DNA from: a virus
Lineage: Duplodnaviria; Heunggongvirae; Uroviricota; Caudoviricetes
IMG/VR virus record: IMGVR_UViG_2565956614_000003
Reading direction: 5' to 3' (one strand)
DNA: 64,000 bases
Under the pieces are notes generated by a model. It worked only from the letters and a program-made list of their open reading frames with translations, was not told the origin of the DNA and did not search any database. Shown here piece after piece: positions 11,030-62,431 of the stretch. The position numbers were made by a program, and so were the translations under genes. Position 1 is the first letter of the stretch. Every line of letters begins with the position of its first letter.

Positions 11030-11046
11030 AAATTAATTAGAGCAAT
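11030..11046 (-). promoter_or_regulatory. C1 repressor operator-like site (16/17 match to ATTGCTCTAATAAATTT) upstream of ssb
   Basis: aaattaattagagcaat in ssb/lyz divergent region. Confidence 0.6.
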
Positions 11047-11070
11047 AATGTATATCTTTGAAACGTGGCT

Positions 11071-11092
11071 AACAAGTGATTTGCATTATCCT
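11071..11092 (+). promoter_or_regulatory. Late-promoter-like element (aacaagtga-N7-tatcct) upstream of lyz
   Basis: Same 9-mer/7-bp spacer/TANNNT architecture recurs upstream of prt, pacA, mat and the baseplate-like block. Confidence 0.4.
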
Positions 11093-11179
11093 GTGCCTTC
11101 TAAAGGGATCGAGTCAGTCGGTATTGGCTGTGAATGAGTGTTTGTCCTGGAGCGTAAAAAATTCGCTTATGAGGTCTTT

Positions 11180-11737
11180 ATGAAGGGAAAAACAGCCGCA
11201 GGAGGCGGTGCAATTTGCGCTATCGCGGTGATGATTACCATCGTGATGGGTAATGGCAATGTGCGAACCAACCAGGCGGGGCTTGAGCTGATTGGTAACG
11301 CTGAAGGTTGCCGACGTGATCCATACATGTGCCCGGCGGGGGTATGGACTGACGGGATCGGTAATACACACGGGGTAACGCCGGGTGTGCGAAAAACCGA
11401 CCAGCAAATCGCCGCTGATTGGGAAAAGAATATCCTGATCGCTGAACGCTGTATTAATCAGCACTTTCGGGGCAAAGACATGCCCGATAATGCCTTCAGT
11501 GCAATGACAAGCGCGGCATTCAATATGGGATGCAATAGCTTACGGACCTACTACAGCAAAGCGCGAGGCATGCGAGTCGAAACGTCCATCCACAAGTGGG
11601 CGCAGAAAGGGGAATGGGTAAATATGTGTAACCATCTCCCTGATTTTGTGAACAGTAACGGCGTGCCCCTGCGAGGTTTAAAGATTCGCCGTGAAAAAGA
11701 ACGCCAGCTTTGCCTGACGGGGCTGATCAATGAATAA
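11180..11737 (+). CDS. lyz: SAR endolysin (lysozyme)
   Basis: Start MKGKTAAGGGAICAIAVMITIVMG (signal-anchor-release N-terminus) with RBS gagg; lysozyme catalytic region; longest ORF starts 42 nt earlier at 11138. Confidence 0.85.
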   Translation: MKGKTAAGGGAICAIAVMITIVMGNGNVRTNQAGLELIGNAEGCRRDPYMCPAGVWTDGIGNTHGVTPGVRKTDQQIAADWEKNILIAERCINQHFRGKDMPDNAFSAMTSAAFNMGCNSLRTYYSKARGMRVETSIHKWAQKGEWVNMCNHLPDFVNSNGVPLRGLKIRREKERQLCLTGLINE

Positions 11738-11984
11738 ACTCCGGCAGCTCCGCCGACTTTCGACAATGAAGTTATCGCTGGCGGCGATAGTTTTCGACTC
11801 GATTTTCATGGCGGTATATGTGCTCAATGAGACGTGGCCACTGGAACCGCTATTGTATGCTGGGCTTCGACTGTGCCTGACATTTTTGAGCATGGCTGCA
11901 AGATTGATGCAGCAGAAAGAAACCGCTTCAGATTGTCCACGCCGCGCGGTGCGCAAATATATGGCACGCAGGCGAAGGCGATAA
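11730..11984 (+). CDS. Small hydrophobic/basic protein downstream of lyz (possible lysis accessory)
   Basis: 84 aa, one hydrophobic segment, Arg-rich C-terminus; overlaps lyz stop. Confidence 0.35.
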   Translation: MNKLRQLRRLSTMKLSLAAIVFDSIFMAVYVLNETWPLEPLLYAGLRLCLTFLSMAARLMQQKETASDCPRRAVRKYMARRRRR

Positions 11985-11993
11985 TAGTTAACG

Positions 11994-12025
11994 ATAACCC
12001 CGGCAGCCGCCGGGGTTATTTTTGG
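11994..12025. terminator. Rho-independent terminator (aaccccggc-agcc-gccggggttatttttt)
   Basis: 9-bp GC stem plus T-run between converging lyz unit and pro. Confidence 0.7.
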
Positions 12026-12028
12026 TGG

Positions 12029-59596: not shown

Positions 59597-59623
59597 GGAT
59601 TACTGCCAATTTTGCTTACGCTT

Positions 59624-60451
59624 TTATTTCACCGGAACAAACGGAACAGCGGTATTACTGGTCATATACTGCGGTAATGTACCGTTCCATTTGTTGATCG
59701 CTTCCAACTCCATAACACCGGGGTTCTGGCGCAGAGCTTCACCACGTAAACGAATGGCATCAGCTTCGGCCTGGGCTTTTGTGCGAATAGCATCAGCCTG
59801 TCCGGCAGCTTCCGCGCGCAGCATGTTGGCCTCTGCTTCACGTTGTTTGACCTCTTGCTCGCGTTGCAGGGTTTTTTGGTTTGCCGTGACTTTGGCGTTA
59901 ATACTGTCAATAACTGTTGGCGGGTATTCTGGCTTACCTACATAAGAGAGGCTCATCACCTGAATGCCGATTGGCGTCATTTCTTCCTGAATGTCTTTAA
60001 GGGCTGCATCAAGCAATTCGGATTTGCCACCGTCGATAAATTTGTCGGTTGTCATTTTGCTGGCTAACCGGTTCAGAGCATCTGCAACCTTCTGGCGTAG
60101 ATCGGTATCAGTAATATCATCTACACCTTTGCGATAGGTCTGAAATACCGTTGTGACTTTTGCTGGATCAACCTTGTAGGCTACGCCGATGTGGTAACCA
60201 ATGGTTGTTCCGTCGCTCATCTGGAAGCTGAACGGCTCATCGTATGTCTTCATTTGCTTAAAGGTCGGGAAGATATAAACTTCAGTATTCAAGCCTGTCC
60301 AGTAGCGACCAACGCCAACTACTTCACCGATACCTTTATCATCCCCCAGCTTATTTACTTTGATCCCTACGTTACCTGGCTCTACCCGATCGCATCCGGT
60401 CAGACATAAAGAACCCAAAATAATCGCTGCACTAATCAACGTTTTTTTCAT
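59624..60451 (-). CDS. plp: SPFH/band-7 domain lipoprotein
   Basis: 275 aa; lipobox LCLTGC; SPFH core and coiled-coil C-terminus. Confidence 0.8.
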   Translation of the reverse strand: MKKTLISAAIILGSLCLTGCDRVEPGNVGIKVNKLGDDKGIGEVVGVGRYWTGLNTEVYIFPTFKQMKTYDEPFSFQMSDGTTIGYHIGVAYKVDPAKVTTVFQTYRKGVDDITDTDLRQKVADALNRLASKMTTDKFIDGGKSELLDAALKDIQEEMTPIGIQVMSLSYVGKPEYPPTVIDSINAKVTANQKTLQREQEVKQREAEANMLRAEAAGQADAIRTKAQAEADAIRLRGEALRQNPGVMELEAINKWNGTLPQYMTSNTAVPFVPVK

Positions 60452-60668
60452 TAATTAATTTCCTGGTTTTTTCACGAAAAAAGACTACTGCGAAAGCTGG
60501 GTAAATGAGCGCGAGAAGGACTCCCAACAATACAAGTATTGTGCTGTTAGATGAGATCATATTTGGCAAAAGCCAAACATACAGAACCAGTGACACAATC
60601 AAACAGAGGACGGCATAAATATATAACCGCACCCATAGCGTTCGACATTTGTTCGGATTGTTCTGCAT
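60432..60668 (-). CDS. upl: Small membrane protein upstream of plp
   Basis: 78 aa, two transmembrane helices. Confidence 0.5.
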   Translation of the reverse strand: MQNNPNKCRTLWVRLYIYAVLCLIVSLVLYVWLLPNMISSNSTILVLLGVLLALIYPAFAVVFFREKTRKLINEKNVD

Positions 60669-61596
60669 CCTCTCACTCCATTATTTAACGAATAAAAAAG
60701 CTGCGGTGCCGGGTGCCTCCCAGTGTCCTTTGGCTGGTTATCCACCGTGGACGGGGAAACAAGGAGAAATGAATGGACTGATATAACCATTTCCCCGCGT
60801 GCGCTTAGCCGCATTCACCGCAACGGAAAGAGCATTCTTGGTGGACCTGTAGATTGGGATATGAACCCGTTACAGGAGAATGCTCTTACCTGTTACGTGC
60901 TCCGTTTCGTGGAGCTAACGGCGGGTGATCAGACCGCACCAGACTGGACTTATTTCAGCGTTATGCTCATGCCAGAGAATCAAACTGTGATGGTCGGTGC
61001 TGAACTCCGACACAGGGTTGTAGCAAGCCCCGCAAAGCGCGCACTACTGTAGTTGCGGCACATCAGCCTGTGCATTCACCACAATGTTGAGAACACTGGT
61101 TGTCACGCTGCAACGCAACATTTATTCGTAGATTGGGATATGACCCCGTTACGCCAGTGTTCTCAACGTTATAGTGCCGGTTACGGTTCCGGCCAGGCCT
61201 CTTCCTCAACGGGGTGTTCTCCATACGGACTACCGTTTATTGGTCGTTCCTGCGGTTTATGTTGTGAAGCCAGATGCTTATCTTCTGGTTGCTTCAAAGA
61301 GCTGCACTTCATCACAACGGTAAGAGCACTCGATGCATTTAAGCCAAGCCCCATAAGGGAGAATGCCCTTACCTGTTGTGTTGTGATGACCGGTGCTGAT
61401 CTCCGGCTTGCGGTTATTTCAGACTCTCACGGGCGTTTAATTGCCCCGCCGAACAGCTCTTTTCCGCAATAGCTGCAATGTCTTTCGCGCATCAGCCTGC
61501 GCATTCATCACAACGGTAAGGGTACTTCGTAGGGATTCGAACCCTCTGCCAAGCACGGCGATCTCCGACGTCGCAAAATACCCTTACCTGTTGTGT

Positions 61597-61672
61597 TGGT
61601 GCCGGTTAACGGACTCGAACCGCTGACATCCTGCTTACAAGGCAGGCGCTCTACCAACTGAGCTAAACCGGC
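61597..61672 (-). tRNA. tRNA-Thr (anticodon UGU)
   Basis: 76 nt; perfect 7-bp acceptor stem GCCGGTT/AACCGGC; loop CTTGTAA; encoded CCA. Confidence 0.85.
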
Positions 61673-61674
61673 AT

Positions 61675-61749
61675 TGGCGATGGTGGATGGATTCGAACCA
61701 CCGACCAGTTGGTTAACAGCCAACTGCTCTACCGCTGAGCTACACCATC
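61675..61749 (-). tRNA. tRNA-Asn (anticodon GUU)
   Basis: 75 nt; acceptor stem GATGGTG/CACCATC; loop CTGTTAA; encoded CCA; 2 nt from tRNA-Thr. Confidence 0.8.
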
Positions 61750-62414
61750 ACTTGCCGGGTACGTCTCCGGCGAGGGCTTCCACCTCCGTATGCTTTTCGG
61801 CGCACCGCGCCCTGGCTGCAATTCGGTAACAGGGGATGCACAACCCTGGCTTCCAGCGTGATTAGCGCCTTCAGCATGACGGGATATACCCGTAAATTCG
61901 TGGAACTGTACCCAAAGTGCTGTTAAGCACCGCTGTTACGCTGAAAAGAAAACGCAACAGGAAAGGACGCTGACCAACAGATGGCCCCTTCTCGTTCATC
62001 TGGTTAATCACACCAGCGCCCTTACCTGTTGTGCCTCCCCGTTCCCTAATACACAGACGGGGACACTCTGCGGTCGATTTTTTGACGGGGGACGACTCAT
62101 ACCCCGTGGCATCTGGCTTCTTAGGCCGCTACCATCATCAGATCATCGTTTGCATTTACTTTAATGGTCAGTTTCTAAACCGCCGCAAAGTCGCTAACCA
62201 TGACGAAAACCCTGAAAAAAACGCCCACCCGAAGATGGGCAAACTGGAAGCTCGTAACGCACTTCGGCGTTGCCACTTAGGCGCATGGTCAACCTGGCAA
62301 CTCGGTGGTTTGTCTGGGAGGGCTAGGCCCAGCCATGCTTACCGCCGCGCCTGTCGCGGCTAACAGCTAAATCGCTCTATAAATCACGATTCATTGAGGC
62401 GATATTACACTAAT

Positions 62415-62431
62415 AAATTTATTAGAGCAAT
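62415..62431 (-). promoter_or_regulatory. C1 operator, perfect 17/17 match (aaatttattagagcaat), overlapping dmt stop codon
   Basis: Reverse complement is ATTGCTCTAATAAATTT. Confidence 0.65.

Follow-up and report, generated by a model that had tools for sequence, protein, structure and literature searches.

The C1 immunity repressor of phage P1 binds each of its operators as an asymmetric 17-bp site. Phage lambda differs in having symmetric operators, which are occupied by dimers and grouped at two loci. The lambda CI operators (OR and OL) are nevertheless comparable, in that there too a repressor blocks early promoters and controls its own gene, whereas the asymmetric P1 operators are dispersed over more than 15 loci. 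In P1, 22 dispersed operators sharing exactly this asymmetric consensus are bound by C1, whose binding is strengthened by Lxc and which is inactivated by Coi and Ant (PMC8546580). This network is already known: descriptions of it in P1 go back a long way, and the GenBank record AF234172 annotates each of its sites. Here we analyse a stretch of 64,000 nucleotides from the Caudoviricetes virus record IMGVR_UViG_2565956614_000003 (the whole of which we call the window). Judged by its colinearity with P1, the window is part of a P1-like phage-plasmid, in reversed orientation relative to P1, and we regard it as almost certain that the 17-mers scattered through it are C1 operators, the binding sites of the immunity repressor in a phage-plasmid of the P1 type.

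P1 and P7 also carry, between sim and kilA, the immI locus (Op51, P51a/b, a1/b1, c4 RNA, a2/b2, icd and ant1/2). A related arrangement, the isrK-orf45-anrP region of Gifsy-1 in Salmonella, comprises a terminated leader matching isrK, a small open reading frame (ORF) and a KilAC-type antirepressor gene (PMC4825925). The interval between pacB and c1 appears in published work simply as a gene insertion (the ‘ant insertion’). To judge from its sequence, it is a second immI-type circuit, complete and controlled by C1, and this is modestly new. Two unannotated candidate operator positions, in darB and ahead of c8, which emerge from the comparison of divergent relatives, are likewise modestly new. 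It seems fairly probable that the lineage carries, beside the canonical immI, a second orthogonal immI circuit with at least four covarying types and, in addition, that the family-wide C1 regulon includes weakened operator positions in darB and in the cre-c8 spacer.

Enrichment and conservation of the 17-bp motif

When the whole window was compared with the P1 reference AF234172 by BLAST, it gave a series of colinear blocks in reverse orientation (Table 1), with 93-99% identity across most of the length. The 10-kb stretch around the finding is 92-99% identical to the Punavirus phages P1, P7, RCS47, SJ46 and vB_EcoM-673R5. Three stretches (32396-34103, approximately 40100-45347 and 59605-60694) have a scant or absent P1 counterpart in place. 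As the window is part of a genome, Op51, Op53, Op55, Op68 and the canonical immI locus fall outside it.

When both strands were searched for the consensus ATTGCTCTAATAAATTT with up to three mismatches, 14 matches were found where 0.33 were expected, and dinucleotide-preserving shuffles gave two at most. A position weight matrix trained on the 19 operators annotated in P1 returned 18 hits at 14 bits or above (0.77 expected) and 17 at 17 bits or above (0.13 expected); for orthologous sites these scores are circular, the training sites being identical to the window sites, which tells against leaning on them, whereas the plain consensus count is not circular. At the low end the excess fades, with 27 hits at 8 bits or above against 16 expected, so that scores of 8-13 bits are approximately at background. 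The hits at 22587(-), with 12.3 bits, and 57865(+), with 13.1 bits, were dropped as operators because about 2.5 chance hits are expected at 12 bits or above; the accepted operators span 15.2-27.6 bits. An earlier note on this DNA had listed at least ten operator-like 17-mers, and the motif was found at every one of its coordinates with zero to three mismatches. The matrix scan that it proposed as a check placed the motif far above background. Neither a background-level frequency nor coding sites devoid of promoter features, the two outcomes it had named as speaking against it, was found.

Fifteen sites (Op21, Op2a, Op2b, Op99a, c, d and e, Op94, Op88, Op86a and b, Op83, Op82, Op72a and b) are positional orthologues of AF234172 protein_bind features labelled ‘phage repressor C1’, as is the degenerate Oc1b (Op99b). 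All 15 non-degenerate orthologues are the same as in P1 at 17 of 17 bases: there is no substitution in 255 operator bases, where divergence in the 200 bp flanking either side predicts 5.5 (Poisson P approximately 0.004). The -35 and -10 hexamers annotated in P1 on or beside the operators are also kept, save for a single base of the P1ssb -10. The repressor predicted to read these sites is 99% identical to that of P1, and the genes for the corepressor (lxc, window approximately 22064-22312, corresponding to P1 9750-9998) and for the inactivator (coi) are present by DNA identity. Since the sites, the promoter hexamers and C1 are all conserved, and since the same consensus is given for P1 (PMC8546580), we equate the network with the known P1 C1 regulon. 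The proposal in the earlier note that the sites map this regulon (ssb, ref, c1/coi autoregulation, lpa, the ban/tRNA unit and poorly characterized operons) is thus upheld, as all of its sites except 34081 fall on AF234172 operators. The sites at 34081, 14880 and 29363 are without an annotated P1 counterpart. Relative to P1, the window has one extra operator, at 34081, and the cargo behind Op21, Op88 and Op72 differs.

The motif also recurs in a much more distant relative. In the Salmonella P1-like plasmid pCFSAN058588, C1 is 79% identical and the compared darB stretch is 68% identical in DNA. The motif is present there at ssb/lyz, ref, c1/coi (including the upstream divergent pair), pdcB/lpa and pmgQ/pmgR (as a facing pair), and also after pmgS, adjacent to dmt, at the uhr-hrdC-dmt promoter and in the ant control region. 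At the level of sequence, this comparison is a phylogenetic footprinting of the whole C1 regulon.

Several details of the earlier listing required adjustment. It described the sites at ref (28873-28902) as tandem operators. A 13-bp direct repeat is indeed present, ATTGCTCTAATTG followed by ATTGCTATAATTG, and its first unit (28886) is the operator. The second unit was rejected as the other half of a tandem pair, because it scores at background level and coincides with the annotated P2ref -10: its TGCTATAAT is the extended -10 of P2ref, and the -10 annotated in P1 (TATAAT) maps to 28879-28884. At 30970 both the operator and a TTGACA are present, the latter being the P1coi -35, but the two abut rather than overlap. 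The pair at 48313/48362, taken to be divergent, is convergent, the sites facing each other. The perfect 17/17 match at 62415, over the dmt stop, was recovered and is the sole perfect copy of ATTGCTCTAATAAATTT in the window; it is one half of the bivalent Op72ab, whose partner had not been listed. Altogether five orthologues had been missed, at 28219(-), 31262(+), 31434(+), 51079(+) and 62404(+), together with the degenerate Oc1b at 31445(-).

Table 1. Colinear blocks, C1 operators, operator-like sites and parts of the pacB-c1 module in the window, in order of position within each group. P1 coordinates refer to AF234172; mm, mismatches to the consensus.
Feature	Window	Strand	P1 counterpart	Score or match	Setting
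Colinear block	1244..30845		31836-19	BLAST	
Colinear block	30845..32395		94782-93232	BLAST	immC and c1
Colinear block	34103..39777		93204-87530	BLAST	
Colinear block	45347..59605		85182-70924	BLAST	
Colinear block	61504..64000		69594-67098	BLAST	
Ossb/Op21	11030..11046	-	21015-21031, 17/17	26.1 bits; 1 mm	Adjoins P2ssb -10 (11047-11052), overlaps P1ssb -35 (11036-11041); controls - strand ssb operon
Candidate weak operator ATTGCCCTAATGTATTT	14880..14896	-	17166-17182, not annotated	17.2 bits	Inside darB, codons 19-24
Omat/Op2b	28219..28235	-	2628-2644, 17/17	20.4 bits	Overlaps ref end, upstream of Pmat/LPmat
Second ref repeat unit ATTGCTATAATTGAGCC	28873..28889	-	Not an annotated operator	8.9 bits (background level)	
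Oref/Op2a	28886..28902	-	1962-1978, 17/17	3 mm	In P2ref spacer (-35 28902-28907, -10 28879-28884)
Degenerate operator-like site ATTGCTATAATTATTTG	29363..29379	-	1485-1501, not annotated	17.1 bits	cre-c8 spacer
Oc1e/Op99e	30887..30903	-	94724-94740, 17/17	2 mm	Abuts P4cre -35 (30882-30887)
Oc1d/Op99d	30970..30986	+	94641-94657, 17/17	1 mm	Fills P1coi spacer (-35 TTGACA 30964-30969, -10 30988-30993); controls imcA/B, coi, c1
Oc1c/Op99c	31262..31278	+	94349-94365, 17/17	15.2 bits	Inside coi
Bivalent Oc1ab/Op99ab	31434..31461	both	94166-94193	Oc1a 31434-31450(+), 17/17; Oc1b 31445-31461(-), degenerate, 16/17	Overlaps Pc1 -35 (31448-31453); c1 autoregulation
Olpa/Op94	37388..37404	-	89904-89920, 17/17	3 mm	Overlaps Plpa -35 (37385-37390); controls late-promoter activator lpa
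OpmgT/Op88	46220..46236	-	84293-84309, 17/17	1 mm	Overlaps -35 boxes of P2pmgT and P1pmgT
OpmgRb/Op86b	48313..48329	+	Within 82152-82217, 17/17	3 mm	Facing Op86a around PpmgR (-35 48372-48377, -10 48349-48354)
OpmgRa/Op86a	48362..48378	-	Within 82152-82217, 17/17	3 mm	Facing Op86b around PpmgR
Oppp/Op83	51079..51095	+	79435-79451, 17/17	20.2 bits	Downstream of PpmgN -10 (51108-51113)
O26/Op82	51986..52002	+	78528-78544, 17/17	2 mm	Divergent pmgL/26 control region; overlaps P1pmgL -35 and P2pmgL -10
Bivalent Obanab/Op72ab	62404..62431	both	68667-68694, halves 17/17	Op72b 62404-62420(+); Op72a 62415-62431(-), perfect consensus	Halves overlap by 6 bp; cover dmt stop and P1ban/P2ban hexamers; control tRNA-ban operon
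c1, predicted to read the operators	31545..32396	+		Product 279/283 identical to P1 C1.100	
ant paralogue, 371 aa	32429..33544	-		55% identical overall to P1 Ant1	Pfam ORF6N and KilAC domains
icd-like gene, 73 aa	33541..33762	-		53/66 (80%) identical to P1 Icd	
Downstream C4 targets a2, b2	33774..33812	-			a2 33812-33806 TTGGTCT; b2 33781-33774 GTCTAAGG
C4-type antisense RNA	33817..33904	-		Rfam C4 RF01695, 75.9 bits (gathering score 45)	
Leader RNA	33929..34006	-		Rfam isrK RF01394, 60.8 bits (gathering score 50)	
Predicted sigma-70 promoter	34055..34083	-			-35 TTGTGT (34083-34078), 17-nt spacer, -10 TACATT (34060-34055)
Op51-type operator TTTGCTCTAATAAATTG	34081..34097	-	Aligned with Oc4/Op51 and P2c4	22.0 bits; 2 mm	

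That the matches are chance copies of an AT-rich word in AT-rich intergenic DNA is extremely improbable. The low-scoring hits do behave in this way, and the second ref unit and the hits at 22587 and 57865 belong to that class, but the shuffle statistics and the exact positional match of the sites to annotated P1 operators already refute this explanation for the network, and pCFSAN058588 carries the motif at the corresponding junctions between genes. It could also be argued that the motif is mainly an element of a shared promoter type, either a TTGCTC -35-like box or a TGCTCTAAT extended -10-like box, rather than a repressor site. In accordance with this, several -35 boxes annotated in P1 are the TTGCTC within the operator (PpmgR, P2pmgT and P1ban), and two units in which C7 is replaced by A (28873 and 29363) read TGCTATAAT, a consensus extended -10. 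However, conservation covers all 17 positions and so extends beyond one hexamer, placement is varied (in the spacer, at the -35, downstream of the -10 or inside coi), both orientations relative to transcription occur, and the sites are described as operators bound by C1 (PMC8546580). The two roles are in any case compatible, since operator-promoter overlap is how repression works, and we consider a promoter element instead of a C1 operator to be very unlikely.

With the 17-mers taken as C1 operators, C1 on a site that overlaps the -35, the -10 or the spacer of a sigma-70 promoter would exclude RNA polymerase (Op21, Op2a, Op72ab, Op82, Op86a, Op88, Op94 and Op99a, d and e). Sites lying downstream of a promoter or within a gene (Op83, Op86b, Op99c and possibly the darB site) may serve as roadblocks or auxiliary sites, and the overlapping inverted pairs Op72ab and Op99ab would act as bivalent operators. 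In the prophage-plasmid state, the early and lytic operons (ssb, ref, mat, coi-c1, cre P4, lpa, pmgT, pmgR, pmgN-ppp, pmgL and ban) would thus be silent. Sequence, position, conservation and covariation are documented here; operator occupancy and repression in the present element we infer.

An immI-like module between pacB and c1

The 34081 site is the one strong site of the window that is absent from P1, and from P7, at the corresponding locus. It begins 4 nt past the pacB stop (34101-34103) and overlaps a P51a-like -35. The predicted promoter is homologous, column for column, to the P1-annotated P2c4/P51a (TTGTAT, 17 nt, TATCTT). Downstream lies a leader RNA that holds the C4 targets a1 (33980-33974, TTGGCCT) and b1 (33964-33957, GTCTAAGG) and contains an intrinsic terminator detected by a terminator scan (stem 33950-33934 followed by a T-run). 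The C4-type RNA that follows presents the loops b' CCTTGGAC (33860-33853) and a' AGGCCAA (33845-33839). Pairing with these loops involves one G-U wobble in a2 and one each in b1 and b2, and b2 overlaps the Shine-Dalgarno sequence (ribosome-binding site) of the icd-like gene. The icd-like stop in turn overlaps the ant start codon (ATGA, 33544-33541), in keeping with translational coupling of the two genes. In comparison with P1 Ant1, the ends of the Ant paralogue are conserved and its middle is replaced.

The order of parts is the same as in the P1/P7 immI locus, with a homologous operator and homologous -35 and -10 hexamers, C4-family loops complementary to upstream and downstream targets, and an overlap of the icd stop with the ant start. 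The module differs from immI in its location, in a leader that matches Rfam isrK and not c4-a1b1 and that contains a terminator, in its C4 loops (AGGCCAA and CCTTGGAC, compared with CTGTCAA and TCACTAAC in P1) and in the ORF6N domain that replaces the middle of Ant. The terminated isrK-type leader, the small ORF and the following KilAC-type antirepressor gene are shared with Gifsy-1 isrK-orf45-anrP, whereas the C4 between leader and small ORF and the P1 C1 operator on the promoter set the window apart. The earlier note had taken 34081 as a flag for a candidate early or anti-defence operon; the site instead heads an immunity (antirepressor) module.

The module was compared with five divergent copies (RCS47, Salmonella pTB502, Escherichia coli pNJS001 and plasmids of E. 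albertii and E. fergusonii) at 83-93% identity. All six sequences agree at operator positions 2-17 and in the two promoter hexamers. The a'/a1/a2 and b'/b1/b2 triplets covary (in RCS47, pTB502 and the E. albertii and E. fergusonii plasmids) and fall into four or more types of specificity, among them GTCTCAA with TTGAGAC, GTTCCAA with TTGGAAC, and CCTTTTGC with GCAAAAGG. An invariant operator combined with covarying loops is what would be expected of a working immI-type circuit that is controlled by C1 and whose antisense specificity is diversifying.

An alternative is that the 34081 site is an inert relic, carried in by an immI-like cassette that recombined between pacB and c1. Its absence from P1 and P7, its two mismatches to the consensus and its placement exactly at a mosaic junction, immediately beyond the pacB stop, would fit such an origin. 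Against this, the operator and hexamers have stayed invariant while the C4 loops and targets around them diverged into covarying types, and the score of the site falls inside the range of accepted operators. Furthermore, the module is intact, with a C4 RNA well above the gathering score and complete icd-like and ant ORFs, and it is widespread, being found in 273 PLSDB plasmid records at 80% or more query coverage. We therefore regard an inert relic as unlikely and favour a C1-controlled circuit.

The closely related phage vB_EcoM-673R5 has both the pacB-c1 module and a canonical immI with a different C4. Because this genome holds both, the module is additional rather than relocated, and the possibility that it is the canonical immI moved to a new place was rejected, at least for that genome. 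The two C4 RNAs of vB_EcoM-673R5 (L005 33158-33245 and L006 33935-34020) have differing recognition loops, which implies, as far as loop sequence can predict, two non-cross-reacting antirepressor circuits. In such an element, C1 would limit transcription of the extra module, and the module's own C4, with loops unlike those of P1, would pair with a2/b2 across the ribosome-binding site and in this way prevent icd-ant from being translated.

A 17-mer identical to that at 34081 was also observed in pCFSAN058588 (L012 10751-10767(+)), after a ulx-like gene. No C4 RNA is present near it, marking a further lineage-specific operator position.

Operator-like sites in darB and the cre-c8 spacer

The darB and cre-c8 sites occur unchanged in P1, and in a matrix scan of the whole P1 genome they were the only hits of 14 bits or more outside the annotated operators. 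The darB site has an exact positional orthologue in pCFSAN058588, ATTGCTCTAATAAATCT, which scores 26.4 bits. The cre-c8 spacer holds ATTGCTCTAATCATTTG in vB_EcoM-673R5 (a canonical core, 19.4 bits) and ATTGCTCTAATAATTTT in pCFSAN058588 (26.3 bits); base-level alignment with the latter is poor, and orthology holds at the level of the spacer only. In the window, a C-to-A change at position 7 of the cre-c8 site creates TGCTATAAT. Both sites probably derive from operators that have kept their strength in relatives and have weakened here and in P1, the one before c8 having been turned into an extended -10.

The operator head with the C7-to-A change, ATTGCTATAATT, is seen in two copies, at 29363-29379(-) before c8 and at 28873-28884(-) as the P2ref -10.

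Several points weigh against reading the 17-mers and the module as controlled by C1. No annotated operator has the C found at position 6 of the darB site or the A found at position 7 of the cre-c8 site, so that C1 may fail to bind these two sites in the present phage. Coding constraint also confounds the conservation seen in darB, where the I-R-A-I residues are conserved. For the pacB-c1 module, a generic promoter scan of the - strand around 34081 gave no promoter above threshold, which is why the promoter was called from its homology to P51a. Moreover, all functional statements are carried over from P1 by analogy. A literature search for a darB operator found nothing relevant.

Operon contents and significance

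The sites at 46220, 48313/48362 and 51986 do not point to new operons but are the known OpmgT/Op88, OpmgRab/Op86ab and O26/Op82. The suggestion in the earlier note that these and 34081 mark candidate early or anti-defence operons stands in part: early expression fits control by C1, and nothing that we found supports an anti-defence role. Most of the P1 genes in the pmgT, pmgR and pmgL/26 operons are non-essential and have no known function (PMC10695390). A single domain of anti-defence type was seen under the C1 operators, and it lies elsewhere, in a gene that had not been flagged for this. This gene, which follows ssb in the Op21 operon (9647-10492(-)), has a C-terminal Tad2-like domain (Thoeris anti-defense 2-like, PF11195; E = 2.5e-22). 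Since the window has 685 bp (9636-10321) that are absent from P1, P1 isaA looks like a deletion-fusion of the ORFs 9647-10492(-) and 8858-9640(-).

Other differences in cargo were noted. Inside the Op88/pmgT operon, a 4.2-kb insertion (41116-45347) occupies a single P1 coordinate, 85182, in the interval from pap to lxr that is already known to vary. Annotation of this insert with Pfam and PHROGs identified a PAPS-reductase-like protein (44431-45309) and an Ead/Ea22-like protein (43194-43682), the other products being of unknown function, and revealed no recognizable anti-defence gene. In the Op72-controlled tRNA-ban operon, an SPFH/Band 7 family protein (59624-60451(-)) stands in place of P1 tciA-tciC. 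Outside these operons, a cin-like serine invertase gene (531-1112(+)) with approximately 69% DNA identity to P1 cin fits the altered cin/C-segment reported for P1-like plasmids.

Overall, the rediscovered C1 network serves chiefly to confirm strict conservation of the regulatory backbone. For annotation, its value is that the operators show where early operons repressed by C1 begin, and three of these operons carry non-P1 cargo (the Tad2-like gene, the 4.2-kb insert and the SPFH protein). The several heteroimmune C4 types of the pacB-c1 module are relevant to immunity against superinfection and to whether P1-like plasmids, which spread resistance genes, can coexist.

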